A stretch of DNA of 64,000 nt from Patescibacteria group bacterium (GCA_018829965.1 JAHJTG010000005.1:148774-212773), one strand, 5' to 3'. Shown: positions 9,319-60,729, numbered from the stretch's first letter. A program made the numbers and translations. The notes: generated by a model not told the origin, from the sequence alone.

Positions 9319-9333
9319 TCAGTGATGGGCTTG

Positions 9334-9463
9334 CCCCGTTAGAAGTCTACATAATTTAAAATTTTATAATCACAATTCTAAGAATTTATTATAATACTGT
9401 GGCGATGCACGAATTTTTGAATTCGTGCATCGCAAAGTTTTCCACCGCAAACTTCTAACGGGG
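9334..9463. mobile_element. MITE-like element, family C (CCCCGTTAGAAGT termini), flanked by a CTTG duplication
   Basis: CCCCGTTAGAAGT at 9334-9346 and ACTTCTAACGGGG at 9451-9463. CTTG at 9330-9333 and 9464-9467. 130 bp, with an internal perfect hairpin gcgatgcacgaat/attcgtgcatcgc. Confidence 0.7.
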
Positions 9464-24933: not shown

Positions 24934-24938
24934 AAATT

Positions 24939-25427
24939 CCTACGAATTACGAATTAAATCGAATTACGAATAACTTCGAATTTATCATGATTTTAAATTA
25001 ATGATTCTTTTAAATTGCAGTCCTTTTTTCGTAAAATTTGCTAAAATTCCTAATTCTAATCCAGTTGCTTTTAAATAAGCATAAACTTGGTCGGTGTTAT
25101 TTTTTAGAAATTTATCCATTTTTTTAATTTCTAATATAATTTTATTTTCAATTAAAAAATCTAAGAAATACCTGCCTATCGGATTTTTATCAAAGCTAAT
25201 TTCTATTGGGACTTGTTCTTTGAATAACAAATTGGTTTCTTTTAATCTCGTGCTTACGGCTTTTTGATAATATTTTTCTTGATAACCATAGCCTAATTTA
25301 TTAGAGACATCAAACAAAATTCCTATTATTTGGTAGCTTAACTCTGGGTAGAGCAAATCTTTCCGTCTTAACTTGCTTTGTTTATTTAAATTATATTCGT
25401 AATTCGGTGACATTCGTAATTCGTAAG
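24939..25427 (-). mobile_element. Family A hairpin element in its gene-bearing form: CGAATTA-heptamer arms enclosing a GxxExxY ORF
   Basis: Left arm cctacgaattacgaattaaatcgaattacgaata (24939-). Right arm attcgtaattcggtgacattcgtaattcgtaag (-25427). These match the arms of the ~115-bp copies at 37.8, 39.0 and 42.2 kb. The ORF start codon lies inside the right arm. Confidence 0.7.
24985..25413 (-). CDS. GxxExxY family protein (PD-(D/E)XK-fold, IVS-protein type)
   Basis: 142 aa. The family motif is present as G-YQ-E-KY-Y in LGYGYQEKYYQKA, followed by DFLIENKIILEIKK (D...E-x-K). Confidence 0.7.
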   Translation of the reverse strand: MSPNYEYNLNKQSKLRRKDLLYPELSYQIIGILFDVSNKLGYGYQEKYYQKAVSTRLKETNLLFKEQVPIEISFDKNPIGRYFLDFLIENKIILEIKKMDKFLKNNTDQVYAYLKATGLELGILANFTKKGLQFKRIINLKS

Positions 25428-25431
25428 ATCG

Positions 25432-26103: not shown

Positions 26104-26235
26104 AAATTTATGAAATTCTAAACTCTAATATCTAAATTCTAAACAAATTTCAATTTTCTAAATCCCAAATCACAAACACGTTTGAAATTTGAGCAATTGG
26201 GATTTGTGATTTATTTAGGATCTAGGATTTTAATT
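26104..26235. repeat. Family B hairpin element (CTAAAYY-heptamer arms), empty form
   Basis: Left arm aaattctaaactctaatatctaaattctaaa...aaatcccaaatcacaaa. Right arm gggatttgtgatttatttaggatctaggatttt. It fills the intercistronic gap. Confidence 0.65.
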
Positions 26236-26643: not shown

Positions 26644-27130
26644 AACAACTTAAATTCTAAATTCTAATTTCTAAATCCTAAATAAATCTAAAACTCAAAG
26701 GTTAAAATTCAAAACATTACATTATTTTGATTTCTCAACCATTGAGCCAAAAATTTTAGTCAGTTCGGTTGCTTCCTGTATTAATTTGTTCCCTTCTGTT
26801 TTTAGGGTTTCACTGTTAATTTCGACTAATCTTAACCAATAACAACTTTCTTTGGCTTCCTTGCGGCAAATTTTAATTCGCATTAGAAAATCTTTTTTGC
26901 TCAAAGTTTCATTCGCCTCAATATAATTTGCCCCGATAGACCCCGATGACCTAATAAGCTGTTTGCCGTCTTCTATGTTGGCAATAGTTCGGCTTAATTT
27001 TCTGACAAATTCTCTTACGTGTCTGGAAAATTCAAGCGTCCTGTCTTCAAGGTCATATCGTTTTGAATTTTGGATTTCGGACATTTAAATTTATTTAGAG
27101 TTTAGGATTTAGTGCTTAGAGTTTTAAATA
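26644..27130 (-). mobile_element. Family B hairpin element in its gene-bearing form, enclosing a four-helix-bundle (23S IVS protein family) ORF
   Basis: Arms taaattctaaattctaatttctaaatcctaaataaatctaaaactc (26650-) and atttatttagagtttaggatttagtgcttagag (27088-27125). The latter is near-identical to the right arm at 60.67-60.71 kb. Confidence 0.65.
26722..27084 (-). CDS. Four-helix-bundle protein (23S rRNA intervening-sequence protein family)
   Basis: 120 aa. LIRSSGSIGANYIEANETLSKKDFLMRIKICRKEAKESCYWLRL is the typical signature of that family. Confidence 0.75.
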   Translation of the reverse strand: MSEIQNSKRYDLEDRTLEFSRHVREFVRKLSRTIANIEDGKQLIRSSGSIGANYIEANETLSKKDFLMRIKICRKEAKESCYWLRLVEINSETLKTEGNKLIQEATELTKIFGSMVEKSK

Positions 27131-27218
27131 AGCATTTATCTATTATACCACAAGAGAAAATCGTAGACAAAAAGCCGTTGAATTATTAAATAAGCATCCT
27201 GTGTTTACACGACGAAGA

Positions 27219-35752: not shown

Positions 35753-37328
35753 TCTCTTTTAACCTATACATTAAAGCCTCGGCGACATGTCCATATTGGA
35801 TGCTCTCTGCTTTATCTAAATCAGCAATAGTTCTGGCGACTTTTAACACTCTGTGATATCCTCGGGCAGATAGTTTTCCGGAATCAACGTATTGTTTTAG
35901 AAGATTTTGTCCTCGCGAGTCATGTTGACAGTACTTTTTTATATCAGGTAATCCCATTTCAGAGTTCGTAAAAATCTTATTAGAAGAAAATCTTGATTTT
36001 TGTATCTCACGGGCTGTCTCTATTTTTTCTCTTATTTTCTCGCTTGTATTTTCTGTTTCTTCTGAAACTAATTTTTCATATTTTACAGCCGGCACCTCAA
36101 TAAACAAATCCATTCTATCCATTAATGGCCCTGATAATTTTCTTCTATACATCGCGACTTGGGAAGTTGTGCAATTGCAGATTTTATCCGGGTCATTTAA
36201 ATATCCGCAAGGGCAGGGGTTGGAAGCTCCAATTAACATAAAACGGCTGGGAAAATTAAAAGTATTTTTTGCCCGAGAAACAGTTATTGTCCCTTCTTCA
36301 ATTGGTTGTCGGAGTGATTCTAAAACATCTCTATGGAACTCTGGAAATTCGTCCAGAAACAAAACTCCGCGATGCGCCAATGTTATTTCCCCTGGTCTTG
36401 GAGGATTTCCGCCGCCGAGCAAAGCCACTTCAGACGAAATATGATGCGGGGAACGGAATGGTCTGAAATTAATAAGCGGCTTGTCATCCGGCAGTAATCC
36501 AGCTATGCTGTAAATTTTTGTGACCTCTAACGATTCTTGAAAATTTAATCTCGGCAAGATAGAAGGGATTGCTTTGGCTAATAAAGTTTTTCCTCCGCCC
36601 GGCGGTCCGAAAAGAAAAAGATTATGACCTCCTGCGGCGGTGATTTCCAAAGCTCTTTTCGCATATTCTTGGCCTTTAATCCAAGCCAAGTTCACGGGAT
36701 AATCAGGGTTTTGGAATAATTCTTCTATTTTAAAATCCTCTGGGGCAAAAGATTTCTTTCCTTCTAAATACTTTATTACATCTGTTAATGATTCGCATCC
36801 TATTACTTTTAGGCTATTATCCTGCGCCCCATCTTTTTTAGATAAGGCGGTTGCTAAAACTGCCTCTTTTTCGTTTGCTCTTGGCAAGATTATTTCTTTA
36901 ATTCCTTGTCTTTTAGCCAATAAAGCAAAAGATAAAGCGCCTTTAATCGGCCGTAATCTTCCATCTAAGGATAGCTCGCCAAAAAATATTTTATCTTGCG
37001 ATTCAAATTTAATCTGGTTAGACGCAGAGAGAAATGAAAGAGCTATTGGCAAATCAAAAAGCGCCCCTTCTTTTTTTAAATCAGCAGGAGCTAATCCTAT
37101 CAGAACTTTATATGGTCTTTGATAGGGAGAGAGAAGCTTCGAACTTTTAATGGCGCTGCCAATCCTTTCTTTTGATTCTTCAACCGCCTTGTCTGGAAGC
37201 CCTACTATATTAAAAGAGCGGAGACCGTGTGAAACATCAGCCTCCACTTCTACAATTTTTGCTTCAAGTCCTACTATTGACGCCGAAAAAACCTTTGATG
37301 GCATAGAATAATAAATCCTAAACTCCAA
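35748..37328 (-). CDS. comM: Mg-chelatase-like AAA+ protein YifB/ComM
   Basis: 526 aa. Lon-like N-terminal domain, GPPGGGKTLLAK, GVLFLDEFPEF, and the Zn motif CPCGY...CNC. Confidence 0.85.
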   Translation of the reverse strand: MEFRIYYSMPSKVFSASIVGLEAKIVEVEADVSHGLRSFNIVGLPDKAVEESKERIGSAIKSSKLLSPYQRPYKVLIGLAPADLKKEGALFDLPIALSFLSASNQIKFESQDKIFFGELSLDGRLRPIKGALSFALLAKRQGIKEIILPRANEKEAVLATALSKKDGAQDNSLKVIGCESLTDVIKYLEGKKSFAPEDFKIEELFQNPDYPVNLAWIKGQEYAKRALEITAAGGHNLFLFGPPGGGKTLLAKAIPSILPRLNFQESLEVTKIYSIAGLLPDDKPLINFRPFRSPHHISSEVALLGGGNPPRPGEITLAHRGVLFLDEFPEFHRDVLESLRQPIEEGTITVSRAKNTFNFPSRFMLIGASNPCPCGYLNDPDKICNCTTSQVAMYRRKLSGPLMDRMDLFIEVPAVKYEKLVSEETENTSEKIREKIETAREIQKSRFSSNKIFTNSEMGLPDIKKYCQHDSRGQNLLKQYVDSGKLSARGYHRVLKVARTIADLDKAESIQYGHVAEALMYRLKES

Positions 37329-37480
37329 ACTCTAAATTCTAATCACTAAATTCTAAATAAATCCAAAAACTAAAATCAAAAATTCAAAACTTTATAATTT
37401 AAATATTTGGATTTTGAAATTGTTTAGGCCTATTTAGCTCGTCGAGCCAACGGTTCGAATAGAGATTTAGGATTTAGGAT
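37329..37480. repeat. Family B hairpin element, empty form
   Basis: aatcctaaactccaaactctaaattctaatcactaaattctaaataaatccaaaaactaaaatcaaaaattcaaaac ... agagatttaggatttaggatttt. It spans the comM start and the dksA-like stop. Confidence 0.65.
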
Positions 37481-41848: not shown

Positions 41849-41869
41849 AATGCTTTTACTTCGTAAAAG

Positions 41870-41968
41870 AAACTCTAAATTCTAATATCTAAACTCTAAA
41901 TGTGTTTTGGATTTTGTGATTTAGAATTTGTGATTTGTTTAGAATTTAGAATTTGGGATTTAGGATTT
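41870..41968. repeat. Family B hairpin element
   Basis: aaactctaaattctaatatctaaactctaaatg...tgatttagaatttgtgatttgtttagaatttagaatttgggatttaggattt. Confidence 0.65.
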
Positions 41969-41969
41969 A

Positions 41970-42233
41970 TTACTTTACTCCTAATTTTTTACAAATTTCA
42001 CTGTATCTTTTTGCAGACTCTTTTTTAAGATAAGCTAAAAGCTTTTTTCTTTTAACCACCATTTTTATTAAACCCCTCTTTGAATGAAAATCTTTAGGAT
42101 GTTTTTTGAGATGTAAAACTAACCTGTTAATTTCTTCGCTTAACAAGCCAATCTGGACCTCTGGAGAACCAGTGTCAGTTTCGTGAATATTGTGCTTCTT
42201 AATAATCTTTGTTTTTTCTTCCGTCTTTAGCAT
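41970..42233 (-). CDS. rpsO: 30S ribosomal protein S15
   Basis: 87 aa. [39 protein letters not shown]. Confidence 0.95.
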
Positions 42234-44068: not shown

Positions 44069-45640
44069 ATGTTAATCCCAAAAGAAGTAAGGTCTGCTAT
44101 TGATAAGTTAAAGAAGCAAGGATTTGAAGCATATATTGTGGGCGGTTGTGTCCGCGATTTTTTGCTTGCCTCGCCGAAGTTTGCAAACGAAGGCGGGATT
44201 GGGATTGCCGCCCAAAGTAAATCTTTGGGCGAGCCTCGCCAAAGGCGGGAACCCGCGGATTGGGATATAACAACTAATGCTAAACCAGAAGAAATCCAAA
44301 AAGTATTTCCAAAGAACTTTTACGAGAACAAGTTTTTAACTGTAACTATTCAAACTGGCAGTAAAAAATCAAAATTAAAAGAAATAGAGGTGACAACTTA
44401 TCGATTAGAGGCGAAATATTCAGACAAACGTCATCCGGATGGAATAAGGTTCGCAAAAACATTAGAAGAAGACCTGGCCAGGCGCGATTTCACCGTAAAT
44501 GCAATCGCGCTGGAAATTCTAAATTCTAAATCCGAAATCCCAAATAAATCTAAAATTCAAAATTCAAAATTCAAAATTGTGGATCTGTTTGACGGCCAAA
44601 CAGACTTAAAAAATAAAATTATTAGAACTGTCGGAAATCCAGAAGAGCGATTTTCTGAAGACGCCCTAAGAATGCTCAGAGCAATAAGATTTGCTACAAC
44701 GTTAGGCTTTACAATTGAGCTCAAAACCTTAGAAGCTATTAAAAAGAACGCCGAGTGGCTAAAAATGATATCAGAAGAAAGAATAAGAGATGAACTCGTA
44801 AAAATTATTATGTCAGAGAGAGCAGATGAAGGAATAGAATTATTGCGTGAAACAGGGCTTTTACGGTTTTTTATCCCAGAGTTATTAGAGGGTTATAAAG
44901 TAGGCCAGAATAAACACCATATTTATGATTGTTGGCAACACTCTTTGCTTTCTTTAAAATATAGCGCTCAGAAAAAGTTTAATCAAAATGTAAGATTAGC
45001 TGCCTTATTTCACGATATTGGCAAACCCCGCGCTAAACGCGGCGATGGCCTTGATTCAACTTTCTATAACCACGAAATAATTGGAGCTAGAATGACCCAA
45101 GGAATTTTAGAAAGATTAAAATTCTCCAAGAAAGATATTGAAAAAATAGTAAAGTTGGTTCGTTACCACCTTTTTTACTATAACGTTGATGAGGTTAAAG
45201 ATGCTTCTGTAAGGCGTTTAGTTCGTAATGTCGGTCCAGACAGCATGGAAGAGCTTTTACAGGTTAGAATGTCAGACAGAATAGGTTCTGGCGTGCCTAA
45301 AGCTGAGCCGTATAAGTTAAGACATCTAAAATATATTGTTGATAAGGTTGCCCAAGACCCGATTTCAGCAAAAATGCTTAAAATTAGCGGGAATGACGTG
45401 ATGAAAATTTTAAATATTAAACCGGGACCAAAGATCGGACAGATTTTAGATATTTTGCTAAGCTATGTTTTGGCTGAGCCTAAGAATAACAAAAAAGCAT
45501 TTTTAGAGAAAGAAGTTTTAAAACTCGGTAAATTATTAGATAGTGATTTGAAAAAAATAGCCGATGGGGCTAAAAAAGAGAGAGAAAAAACAGAAACGAA
45601 AAGAGATGAGATGACAAAGCAGAAGTATTGGGTAACATAG
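44069..45640 (+). CDS. cca: CCA-adding enzyme / poly(A) polymerase family nucleotidyltransferase with HD domain
   Basis: GGCVRDFLL...DWDITT head motif, RAIRFA, and HD domain LFHDIGK. Two repeat-derived in-frame inserts (44165-44258 and 44514-44578). Confidence 0.85.
   Translation: MLIPKEVRSAIDKLKKQGFEAYIVGGCVRDFLLASPKFANEGGIGIAAQSKSLGEPRQRREPADWDITTNAKPEEIQKVFPKNFYENKFLTVTIQTGSKKSKLKEIEVTTYRLEAKYSDKRHPDGIRFAKTLEEDLARRDFTVNAIALEILNSKSEIPNKSKIQNSKFKIVDLFDGQTDLKNKIIRTVGNPEERFSEDALRMLRAIRFATTLGFTIELKTLEAIKKNAEWLKMISEERIRDELVKIIMSERADEGIELLRETGLLRFFIPELLEGYKVGQNKHHIYDCWQHSLLSLKYSAQKKFNQNVRLAALFHDIGKPRAKRGDGLDSTFYNHEIIGARMTQGILERLKFSKKDIEKIVKLVRYHLFYYNVDEVKDASVRRLVRNVGPDSMEELLQVRMSDRIGSGVPKAEPYKLRHLKYIVDKVAQDPISAKMLKISGNDVMKILNIKPGPKIGQILDILLSYVLAEPKNNKKAFLEKEVLKLGKLLDSDLKKIADGAKKEREKTETKRDEMTKQKYWVT
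44165..44258. repeat. GC-rich palindromic insert (family E-like) in-frame inside the catalytic head motif of cca
   Basis: gcctcgccgaagtttgcaaacgaaggcgggattgggattgccgcccaaagtaaatctttgggcgagcctcgccaaaggcgggaacccgcgg. It encodes ASPKFANEGGIGIAAQSKSLGEPRQRREPA between VRDFLL and DWDITT. Confidence 0.7.
44514..44578. repeat. Family B heptamer arm in-frame inside cca
   Basis: aaattctaaattctaaatccgaaatcccaaataaatctaaaattcaaaattcaaaattc encodes ILNSKSEIPNKSKIQNSKFKI. Compare the four-helix ORF start MSEIQNSK. Confidence 0.65.
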
Positions 45641-57040: not shown

Positions 57041-57052
57041 TAGGAGGGTTGA

Positions 57053-57204
57053 CCCCGTTAGAAGTTTGCGATTGGATACCGAGCGAAGCGCGAGTGGCGA
57101 ATAGCCACATCCTGAACCGGGGCGAAGCGCTTCGCCCAACAAGGGATATACCTATTCGGTATACGCACTTCGTTACTGAAAACTATGGCAAACTTCTAAC
57201 GGGG
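57053..57204. mobile_element. MITE-like element, family C, flanked by a TTGA duplication
   Basis: CCCCGTTAGAAGT(TTGC) at 57053- and (GCAA)ACTTCTAACGGGG ending at 57204. TTGA at 57049-57052 and 57205-57208. 152 bp, with a GC-rich interior containing ggcgaagcgcttcgcc. Confidence 0.7.
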
Positions 57205-57335
57205 TTGACATCCAATTTTCATTTTGATAAGCTACAATAAAGTATTGGATATTTGGAAGATACGTCCGTCTGACCGCGGACTATTTTTTTAAGAAAATAA
57301 TTACTAATATCTAACATCTAATATCTAACACCAAA

Positions 57336-59321: not shown

Positions 59322-60590
59322 ATGAAACATCAAATTAAAAAACTACCAGCATCACAAATAGAAATTGAAGTAGAAATTCCTTCCGAAGATTTGGATAAGT
59401 TTTTAGAAAAAGCCTTTGCGCATTTTAACGAACACTTAAAAGTGGATGGTTTTAGGCAAGGAAACATCCCGAAAAATATCGTGGAAGAAAAAGTTGGCAA
59501 GGAAAATATACTTGCCGAAGCAGCGGATTTAGCAGTGAAGGATGCGTATGCAAAAATAATTAAAGAAAATAATTTGGAGCCTATTACTGCGCCGGATGTA
59601 CAGGTTTTGAAGTTGGCAAAAGGCAATCCTTTCATATTCAAAATAAAAGTGAATCTCTTGCCGGAAATTGGTCTCGGAGACTATAACAAGATTGCTTCGC
59701 AAGTTAAAAAGAATAAAATTTCTGTCAGCGAAGAAGAAATTAATAACTCGTTGGAATATATCAGAAAATCAAGATCTAAGTTTTCCCAACTTGATAGACC
59801 TGCTCAAGAAAAAGATTTTATTGAAATTGAATACGAAAGTTCTCAATTAGGTTCTGAAAAAATGAAGGACCAGTTTATCCTAGGGGAGGGCGGATTCATG
59901 CCTGGTTTTGAACAAAAAATCGTAGGGATGAAAACCGGCGAGGAAAAAGAGTTCTCTGTAGCCTTTCCGCAAAACGCTCAAAGAAAAGATTTAGCCGGAA
60001 AGGAAGTTTCTTTTAAAACTAAAATGCTCGGCGTTAAAAAAGTAGAAATACCAGAAGCTAATGACGATTTTGTTAAAAGTTTAGGGAAGTTTGAGAGCCT
60101 TTCAGCTCTTAGAGATAATCTTAAAGAAGGAATAACAATGGAAAAAGAAGAACAAGAAAGAGAAAATAGAAGAAAGGAGATCTTAGAGAAAATAGTTGAA
60201 AAATCAAAAATTGATATTCCTCAATCTTTGATTGATTCTGAAAAAGAAAACCTATTAAAGAATTTTAAAAACAGAATAAGCCAAAACCATAAAATCAGTT
60301 TTGAAGAATATTTGGCTTCGGTAAAACAAGACGAAAAGACAATTTTAGAATCTTTTGTAAAAGAGGCAGAGAAAAAGATCAAAAACTATCTAATTTTAAA
60401 AGAAATCGGAAAGAGAGAAAATATTCTAATTAGCGAGGAAGAAATTGAAAAGGAAGTCAATAAAAATATCAAAAATTATTCAAAAGAGGTTTTAGAAAAA
60501 ATTGACATTAACGAATTTAAAGAGTATATTAAAGGAGTAATATATAACGAAAAGATTTTCCAATTATTGGAAAATCTTTTAAAACCCTAA
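59322..60590 (+). CDS. tig: Trigger factor
   Basis: 422 aa. N-terminal ribosome-binding region GFRQGNIP, a central FKBP-like region and a C-terminal arm domain. Upstream of clpP as usual. Confidence 0.85.
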   Translation: MKHQIKKLPASQIEIEVEIPSEDLDKFLEKAFAHFNEHLKVDGFRQGNIPKNIVEEKVGKENILAEAADLAVKDAYAKIIKENNLEPITAPDVQVLKLAKGNPFIFKIKVNLLPEIGLGDYNKIASQVKKNKISVSEEEINNSLEYIRKSRSKFSQLDRPAQEKDFIEIEYESSQLGSEKMKDQFILGEGGFMPGFEQKIVGMKTGEEKEFSVAFPQNAQRKDLAGKEVSFKTKMLGVKKVEIPEANDDFVKSLGKFESLSALRDNLKEGITMEKEEQERENRRKEILEKIVEKSKIDIPQSLIDSEKENLLKNFKNRISQNHKISFEEYLASVKQDEKTILESFVKEAEKKIKNYLILKEIGKRENILISEEEIEKEVNKNIKNYSKEVLEKIDINEFKEYIKGVIYNEKIFQLLENLLKP

Positions 60591-60712
60591 ATTCGAAATC
60601 CTAAACTCTAAACAATATTAAAATTATAAATCCAAAGCACAAAACCAGTTTAGAATTTTAAATTTTTAGCATTTGGATTTATTTAGGATTTAGAGATTAG
60701 TGCTTAGAATTT
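60586..60712. repeat. Family B hairpin element between tig and clpP
   Basis: ccctaaattcgaaatcctaaactctaaac...atttggatttatttaggatttagagattagtgcttagaattt. Confidence 0.65.
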
Positions 60713-60729
60713 AATTTATTAAAATTTTT

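Follow-up and report, generated by a model that had tools for sequence, protein, structure and literature searches.

A heptamer-bounded four-helix-bundle gene cassette of the intervening-sequence type in a protein-coding operon of a Patescibacteria bacterium

Introduction

To our knowledge, the S23p/four-helix-bundle protein family has been without an assigned function since it was discovered in rRNA intervening sequences (IVS) in the 1990s, and its sole characterised relative is Avd of the diversity-generating retroelements (DGR). The subject of this article is a gene of this family located in a 64,000-nt stretch of a Patescibacteria metagenome contig having 35% G+C (the whole stretch being hereafter called the window), where a single 473-nt cassette (26652-27124, minus strand) consists of a 120-amino-acid PF05635/TIGR02436 open reading frame (ORF) enclosed between two inverted arms. 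That IVS-type cassettes, previously known from rRNA genes, live in the operons of many phyla is new. A first-pass annotation of the window had placed the ORF inside one copy of a dispersed family of heptamer hairpins, a reading which the data presented below support as essentially right and more general than stated, the mechanism proposed here being held with moderate confidence.

The IVS of Coxiella burnetii, 428 nt long and located in helix 45 of the 23S rRNA, is closed by a 28-bp terminal stem and contains three GACAGAT heptamers and a degenerate fourth one directly before the S23p start codon; its ORF, in the sense orientation, is preceded by a weak ribosome-binding site, and cleavage by RNase III takes place at the first repeat (PMC4990558). 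Furthermore, rRNA insertions of the candidate phyla radiation (CPR) occasionally encode an ORF of the PF05635 type (PMC11270868). The window cassette shares with the rRNA IVS (Leptospira; Coxiella S23p) the protein family, a size of ~0.43-0.5 kb, terminal inverted repeats enclosing a sense ORF and a sporadic distribution suggesting horizontal transfer (PMC4990558), and shares with that of Coxiella tandem heptamers that run up to the start codon, the last of them degenerate, as well as a poor or absent Shine-Dalgarno sequence. Unlike the rRNA IVS, on the other hand, the cassette is found in a 5' untranslated region (UTR) and its relatives in intercistronic spacers of protein-coding operons, its heptamer is AAATYCK instead of the GACAGAT of Coxiella, its stem is far less perfect and ORF-less copies of it exist. 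In addition, the ORF is strongly conserved in cassettes of the window type whereas it is decaying in Coxiella, and RNase III cleavage, demonstrated for the Coxiella IVS, is something that we infer for the window cassette.

Two other kinds of dispersed hairpin invite comparison. The 7-bp-repeat hairpins called short tandemly repeated repetitive (STRR) sequences, such as that between hupS and hupL of filamentous cyanobacteria, are unexplained, mRNA stabilisation or translational coupling having been proposed (PMC2670836). They too are tandem 7-bp repeats in inverted arrays forming hairpins in operon spacers, but they have been described without an associated gene and in cyanobacteria only, whereas arrays of the window type, with their fixed number of four heptamers followed by an anchor, form part of a gene cassette and are found in many phyla. 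Likewise, the repetitive extragenic palindromic (REP) sequences and their doublets (REPIN) combine dispersed intergenic hairpin doublets with a gene flanked by cognate inverted repeats; however, that gene, the REP-associated tyrosine transposase (RAYT), encodes a Y1 transposase of the IS200/IS605 type, whereas the cassette encodes a small helical PF05635 protein having no evident catalytic site, and the cassette gene is multi-copy, has moved across phyla and is associated with heptamer arrays rather than with a single palindrome. Finally, miniature inverted-repeat transposable elements (MITEs) and integron cassettes are, like the present element, short and promoterless, bounded by structured repeats, served by an upstream host promoter and accompanied by ORF-less derivatives, but the present element differs from them in that it has neither a target-site duplication nor a partner transposase or integrase, in lacking a single site of the attC type, and in being scattered in operons instead of arrayed. 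Searches of the literature other than closed-access papers yielded no account of a cassette of this kind outside rRNA, of fixed four-heptamer arms or of protein-repeat covariation.

Gene, hairpin and heptamers as one conserved unit

The two inverted arms of the window cassette (26652-26692 and 27084-27124) are 41 nt long and 78% complementary, their alignment exceeding that of shuffled sequences with z = 8.3, and in the predicted fold of the sense RNA the ORF is enclosed by the outer stem with an energy of -111.6 kcal/mol (z -4.4) that 0 of 100 shuffles equal. Read in register, each outer arm is composed of four heptamers (AA-A-T-N-C-K) and an AAAYAA anchor, and the heptamer arrays extend further towards the middle of the cassette, on the 5' side as far as codon 8, the start codon included, and on the 3' side for ~35 nt past the stop codon (Table 1). 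The four-helix-bundle protein is the only ORF of the cassette, in which no transposase or recombinase was found. No rRNA was found in the window, and the reading of the hairpin as an intrinsic terminator was rejected because there are 0 terminator-like sites (G+C-rich stem followed by a U tract) between 26000 and 27400.

Other genomes contain the same unit in great number. The window protein matches 5,993 clusters at 50% identity, and homologues with 60-77% identity are counted in thousands, some in lineages that are only very remotely related; of the more than 1,100 matches to homologues, ~160 loci were fetched, 80 belonging to genome assemblies and 80 to metagenomes. Where both flanks could be read, most of the homologues share the design of the window cassette, the carriers being distributed over more than 10 phyla (Planctomycetota, Patescibacteria, Desulfobacterota, Gammaproteobacteria, Chlorobi, Bacteroidota, Nitrospirota and others). 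In the consensus layout the stop codon of the upstream gene is followed by four A-A-A-T-N-C-(G/T) heptamers, AAA(C/T)AA, 6 nt and the ATG of an ORF that starts ATG ACC GAA ATT CAA AAT TCA AAA CA...; the stop codon of the latter is followed by an inner arm of ~25-36 nt, TT(G/A)TTT, four inverted heptamers and the next gene. The anchor lies exactly 12 nt 5' of the ATG in 103 of the 146 elements that have both flanks, and exactly four in-register heptamers are present in 79/103 of the 5' arms and 72/103 of the 3' arms, five being present in none; significant inverted flanks were detected in 77% of 82 elements (median z 6.7).

The relationship of the cassettes with the surrounding genes is equally regular. 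The upstream neighbour is co-oriented with the cassette in 114 of 118 cases (p 5e-29); for the gene on the downstream side the figure is 104 of 117 (p 8e-19). The distance from the upstream stop codon to the ATG has a median of 48 nt and a mode of 38 nt, at which the TAA overlaps heptamer 1, and the 3' arm is separated from the next start codon by a few to a few tens of nucleotides. Where annotated, the neighbours are operon partners, namely the large and small subunits of aconitase-family enzymes (leuC/leuD-like), HlyD and AcrB, a B12-binding (methylmalonyl-CoA-mutase-like) and a glyoxalase-fold (epimerase-like) protein, or an isocitrate/isopropylmalate-dehydrogenase-family protein and an HMGL-like protein; in several Planctomycetes loci the conserved end of the upstream gene is the same as in the leuC/leuD-like example. 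Distant subfamilies have heptamers of their own in the same arrangement, such as AAAAGGC (L004), AATTTTC (L085), GGGGTCA (L089) and AATTGCT (L007), and arrays are found in cultured Nostoc as well (GTCGGAG x4 at NPUN_RS34315 of N. punctiforme PCC 73102, AATTCAA x4 at COO91_RS40980 of N. flagelliforme), the four-helix-bundle genes of Nostoc and Anabaena plasmids being flanked by heptamer arrays. On plasmid pANACY.01 of Anabaena cylindrica PCC 7122 (L166) such a gene (ANACY_RS28330) lies between cas2 and cas1 with flanking repeats of the AAAGTRA type; it is on the strand opposite to both cas genes and is an exception to the rule of co-orientation. Phage carriage was considered and rejected, 0 relatives of the cassette being present in viral contigs. 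Gene, hairpin and heptamers are one conserved unit, and the dispersal of an IVS-like hairpin-plus-ORF unit in protein-coding operons, which the first-pass annotation had proposed from the window, is seen in the ~160 loci, in the co-orientation of their neighbours and in the four relatives without insertions described in the next section.

As to the protein, the 120-amino-acid ORF scores 68.1 bits (cut-off 24) on TIGR02436, the four-helix-bundle hidden Markov model to which it had been predicted to belong, and 48.5 bits (cut-off 33.8) on PF05635. The AlphaFold2 (AF2) monomer model is a confident four-helix bundle with a predicted local distance difference test score (pLDDT) of 91.7 and disorder limited to residues 1-7; Foldseek relates it to BT_0352 (2RLD; template-modelling (TM) score 0.77-0.82), to Xcc0516 (2GSC; probability 1.0) and to Avd (4DWL, TM 0.67/0.72, and also the Avd chains of the DGR ribonucleoprotein 8UB7, chain E). 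The sequence itself matches 2RLD, which contains 5 chains, with E 2.6e-12, and the Xanthomonas S23p is reported to form a toroidal homopentamer (PMC4990558). All 38 columns that are invariant in a 36-sequence alignment (A1) are present in the window protein, and the ORF is under strong purifying selection in the window cassette. At the beginning of the gene, moreover, the synonymous sites are frozen over 100 homologues, with Glu3 encoded by GAA in 57/57, Gln5 by CAA in 61/61 and Lys8 by AAA in 97/97; elsewhere in the gene both codons are used for the same amino acids. This constraint at the nucleotide level falls on codons 3, 5, 6 and 8: the first codons, already noticed to be repeat-like, belong to the nucleic-acid element.

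Insertion into a type-IV-secretion-like operon

The neighbours of the cassette in the window are genes for Fic, PrgI, a TraC-like protein, a GxxExxY (PDDEXK_3) protein and TraG. Comparison with the orthologous operon of four relatives, in which the TraC-like protein is 78-82% identical to that of the window, indicates that the prgI-traC spacer, 132 nt long in the window and consisting of an empty hairpin, is only 4-27 nt long in the relatives, and that the traC-traG spacer, amounting to 498 nt in the window, where it contains the GxxExxY gene with heptamer arms of its own, is 4-11 nt long in them. The four relatives without insertions at the orthologous sites demonstrate an insertion polymorphism. 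In the relatives L163-L165, which have no cassette, a TTGTCA-N17-TGTGGTATAAT promoter is found 5' of prgI; the window keeps the operon promoter, and the cassette separates it from the prgI ATG. Its location between promoter and prgI makes the cassette the predicted first cistron of the operon transcript and, on the evidence of the sequence, inserted into and co-transcribed with the operon.

Other insertions occur in this operon. In one of the relatives just mentioned, the 5'-UTR position between promoter and prgI, where the window has its cassette, is occupied by an empty hairpin built from a different heptamer (AAATGCA AAATTTA AATATCA AAATGCA ... TGATGTT TGATTTT; L165:3460-3569), which suggests repeated use of one site. 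The GxxExxY / PD-(D/E)XK gene of the window (24985-25413; TIGR04256, 112 bits) lies in an insert (24934-25431, minus strand) between the traC-like gene and traG, and is bracketed by inverted arrays of TTACGAA / TTCGTAA that reach into its first codons; with heptamer arms of its own, it therefore represents the same design with a second cargo family. Heptamer arms as a rule for GxxExxY genes elsewhere were dropped, the flanking repeats being direct and non-heptameric in L049 and L045. In one relative the traG-like ATPase gene contains an intein with a LAGLIDADG endonuclease (L162:4677-8474), which adds to this operon a selfish insert of yet another, third, kind.

What is conserved in the arms

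If the arms pair to form a stem, is it the pairing that selection maintains? Pairing was counted in 62 in-register outer arms selected on the invariant positions, the invariant columns of which carry no information, and paired cells amount in these 62 elements to 83.3%, compared with 80.0% after shuffling and 21-56% with the partner slid. Abundant two-sided changes are found only at the four position-7 pairs (U-A ~30, G-C ~27). This position, occupied by G or T, is 89% uniform across all 8 heptamers of an element independently of the G+C of the locus, and the two arms agree in 81% of the cases as opposed to 44% expected. The arm duplex has an energy of ~-46 to -60 kcal/mol and the ends of the elements are sharp (AAAT...ATTT). 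Conservation therefore concerns the 7-nt motif, the number of its copies and the inverted order in which they are arranged; the pairing follows physically and is not fine-tuned by selection.

The protein and its repeat

The C-terminus of the protein differs between elements with G-type (CGAAA) and T-type (CTAAA) repeats, the window protein being an example of the T type and that of L006 of the G type. In the former it reads ...ELMNIFGSIL-R-KS-E, the position occupied here by R (position x) being R in 26, Q in 6, K in 2, A in 2 and V in 1 of the proteins and E or T in 0; in the latter it reads ...ELM(K/H)IFGSI(L/V)-(E/T)-KS-K, position x being E in 21, T in 16 and R in 0. The Arg codons found at position x are CGN and AGA alike, and therefore the constraint acts on the protein. 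When the termini are excluded from tree building, at least 14 changes of core type are inferred, and the residue class agrees with the core type in 74/77 elements, a link which, given a noisy tree, is suggestive rather than proof. On one Pirellulales contig (L027) two elements (181-546 and 2319-2684), one of the CTAAA and one of the CGAAA type, lie ~1.8 kb apart, and the protein of each carries the cognate C-terminus. The G+C content of the host was rejected as the cause of the core type (0.454 vs 0.455 for CTAAA vs CGAAA). The simplest reading of these sequence data would be that each protein recognises its own repeat.

Empty hairpins and other arrays in the window

Arm profiles built exclusively from the arms of other genomes recover the cassette from the window with E 2e-13 and 3e-9, and with it four ORF-less hairpins (E 1e-5 to 5e-11). 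This bears out what had been proposed from the window alone, namely that the ORF lies within a hairpin of heptamer arms and that these align with empty copies, the right arm at 27089 matching the copy at 60677. Six empty copies had been listed; four of them (26.10-26.23, 37.31-37.43, 41.87-41.97 and 60.58-60.715 kb) stand, whereas those at 9.26 and 57.3 kb were rejected as members on account of their E-values of at least 0.25, partial heptamer runs and different layout.

Table 1. Features of the cassette and of related arrays in the window (strand left empty where none is assigned)
Feature	Position	Strand	Sequence and evidence
Outer 5' arm	27091..27124	-	AAACTCT AAGCACT AAATCCT AAACTCT + AAATAA; invariant positions 12/12; profile match 27125-27059, E 2.3e-13
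Inner 5' stem half	27059..27090	-	6-nt leader, ATG (27084-27082), first 8 codons (MSEIQNSK); fold
Four-helix-bundle (Avd-like, PF05635/TIGR02436) gene	26722..27084	-	120 amino acids, intact
Inner 3' stem half	26686..26721	-	starts right after stop codon (TGTAATGTTTTGAATTTTAACCTTTGAG...); profile match 26718-26649, E 3.2e-9
Outer 3' arm	26652..26685	-	reverse complement AAATTCT AAATTCT AATTTCT AAATCCT + AAATAA; end 8 nt before prgI start codon
Promoter-like site of the type-IV-secretion-like operon, directly 5' of cassette	27142..27170	-	TTGTCT-17 nt-TATAAT with TG extension
Empty hairpin filling the prgI / traC-like spacer	26110..26231		profile, fold
Empty hairpin, DksA/TraR-type gene to Mg-chelatase/ComM-like gene	37311..37428		profile; weakest of the four, fold z -1.6
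Empty hairpin 5' of NYN-domain gene	41867..41973		profile; fold z -7.5
Empty hairpin, tig to clpP	60576..60715		both arms complete (4 heptamers + anchor); fold z -4.4
Single arm-like copy inside cca	44508..44579	+	translated in frame as ILNSKSEIPNKSKIQNSKFK; E 5.7e-8 and 4.7e-10

The hairpin copies within the window are diverged, not near-identical, and an attempt to orient the empty ones by their scores on the 5'- and 3'-arm profiles was indecisive, the arms being near-palindromic. In the flanks of L015, L024, L048 and L068, ORF-less copies that retain the ATG and the first 8 codons adjoin full cassettes, a finding that fits the view of empty hairpins as internal-deletion derivatives. The recurrence of the first codons within cca (44069-45640), reported in the first-pass annotation, is confirmed and in frame, the arm-like array being located between the RDFTVNAIA and DLFDGQTDL motifs, apparently inserted in a loop.

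Other repeats of the window have a different organisation. Solo heptamers without an inverted partner (TAATATC TAACATC TAATATC TAACACC; 57299-57335, E 8.8) extend up to the start of nusA, and a different, G+C-rich long hairpin (GGGTTGACCCCGTTAGAAGTTTGC ... GCAAACTTCTAACGGGGTTGAC; 57043-57210), presumably the other hairpin family of the first-pass annotation, follows the UPF0102 gene. At ~9325-9350 (9.33 kb) there is a half-site, GGGCTTGCCCCGTTAGAAGTC, related to the latter hairpin.

Proposed mechanism and alternatives

The reading that we favour, to which we assign a probability of roughly 0.6, is that the segment 26652-27124 is a selfish cassette of the IVS type residing in an mRNA operon, the protein of which binds its own repeats. 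It would be one copy of a widespread, horizontally spreading ~0.47-kb cassette of the same kind as the ORF-bearing IVS of 23S rRNA. Being devoid of a promoter of its own, the cassette would be transcribed from the promoter of the host operon by virtue of its insertion in the sense orientation, and the ends of the transcript would then pair into an imperfect stem of ~70 nt, closing off the ORF and rejoining the host flanks. The stem is a likely substrate of RNase III, to judge from the analogous IVS of Coxiella and Leptospira, and, at a minimum, would act as a structural insulator protecting the genes on either side from damage by the insertion. The Avd-like protein would most likely bind the heptamer array in a sequence-specific manner, on its own RNA or DNA, with one repeat per subunit, a stoichiometry that we infer from the pentameric nature of the solved members and from the 4 + 1 repeats of each arm. 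The ORF-less hairpins, in turn, may be related to the cassette, the gene having been lost from them or never having been present. Of these steps, RNase III processing (for which the argument is one of analogy), protein binding and the mode of movement are the ones to be taken as conjectural.

A number of facts weigh against this reading. No RNase III gene was found in the window, and the heptamer-3 triplet is unpaired in 68-84% of the elements, forming a conserved internal loop; the abundance of such loops makes the stem a poorer substrate for RNase III than that of Coxiella. A sense-strand excess of G-U pairs, the signature of pairing at the RNA level, is absent and was rejected (163 G-U vs 199 A-C, with 588 transversion mismatches), and the idea of a stem selected for pairing was rejected as well, complementarity at the variable positions being lower than chance (for positions 3-5 of the heptamer the frequency of matches is 0.438 between the two arms of an element, compared with 0.49 between arms of different elements, z -2.8). 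Concerning movement, none of 39 junction pairs shares a target-site duplication, the divergence of the orthologous spacers being too high to exclude one of 1-2 bp, and no footprint of any known insertion mechanism was found. As to the protein, its covariation with the repeat could be due in part to shared descent, for which the correction is incomplete, the three covarying residues could represent an internal charge swap, and the correspondence between 4 + 1 repeats and a pentamer is numerology.

A wider proposal, which we regard as tentative and on the whole unlikely, is that the Avd/S23p proteins read heptamer arrays in a sequence-specific manner and, together with their cognate inverted arrays, constitute an unrecognised class of self-contained mobile cassettes. 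The homopentameric ring would in this case wrap a single-stranded stretch of RNA or DNA ~35 nt long, each subunit accommodating one heptamer, in a manner resembling that of TRAP, and the C-terminal residue would read position 7 of the heptamer (Arg for G).

The main rival of the selfish IVS-type cassette, itself improbable in our opinion, is an element that moves at the level of DNA, the arrays being terminal inverted repeats or binding sites in double- or single-stranded DNA and the RNA hairpin a by-product. The four-helix-bundle protein would mark or synapse the ends for a nuclease or recombinase acting in trans, and the sense orientation would merely reflect the borrowing of a host promoter. 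The conservation of a motif in inverted orientation rather than of complementarity, the sharp AAAT...ATTT ends, the polymorphism of the sites among relatives and the covariation of protein and repeat would all agree with such an element, as would the resemblance of the empty copies to internally deleted MITE-like derivatives and the occurrence, in the same operon, of a PD-(D/E)XK gene with heptamer arms of its own. However, no target-site duplication is seen, the cassette is without transposase or recombinase, and the copies in the window are diverged instead of near-identical. Furthermore, DNA transposons do not usually show such a bias of orientation (114:4) or such a placement, flush to the stop and start codons of the neighbours, and the existence of the same design within rRNA demands tolerance at the RNA level (PMC4990558).

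Could the hairpins instead serve the host? In this case they would be intergenic structures of the STRR or REP kind that stabilise transcripts or couple translation, with the four-helix-bundle gene as an occasional passenger and the unit as such not mobile. The 4 to 1 ratio of empty hairpins to full cassette in the window, the presence of hairpins in operon spacers such as tig/clpP and the precedent of the 7-bp-repeat hairpins of hupS-hupL in filamentous cyanobacteria (PMC2670836) are in keeping with this possibility, which becomes quite improbable when one considers that arms and gene travel together (60-77% protein identity, near-identical leaders) across phyla amid unrelated flanking genes, that close relatives have at the same spacers 4-27 nt and no hairpin, and that the first codons of the gene form part of the repeat.

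The similarity with Avd raises the question whether the gene could be the accessory protein of a DGR. The two proteins have a homologous four-helix-bundle fold (4DWL, TM 0.67/0.72; 8UB7, chain E), Avd being a pentameric accessory that binds nucleic acid and reverse transcriptase (4DWL, 8UB7), and PF05635, the homology of which with Avd is recognised, is the Pfam family most often encountered in the vicinity of DGR reverse transcriptases (PMC10053308). Nevertheless, sequence identity with Avd is only ~10-12%, no reverse transcriptase was found among the neighbours, template/variable repeats not having been searched for separately, and the annotated neighbours in related loci are genes of metabolic or transport operons, so that this origin has very little probability. 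Finally, a chance resemblance between low-complexity AT-rich spacers, as might be expected from A/T-rich heptamers in a window with 35% G+C, is refuted by the arm alignment (z = 8.3), the independent profiles (E 2e-13) and the identical register of 62 fully in-register elements from other genomes.

Implications

If true, the model in which these proteins read heptamer arrays would unify the ORF-bearing rRNA IVS, the operon hairpins of the STRR type and the origin of the Avd of DGRs, joining three loose ends (the IVS protein family, the STRR hairpins and Avd) into a single testable model, for which Nostoc punctiforme PCC 73102 and Anabaena cylindrica PCC 7122 are cultured carriers. As far as annotation is concerned, hundreds of "intergenic" stem-loops of metagenome-assembled genomes (MAGs) and the small genes labelled "four helix bundle protein" would turn out to be parts of one and the same selfish element.

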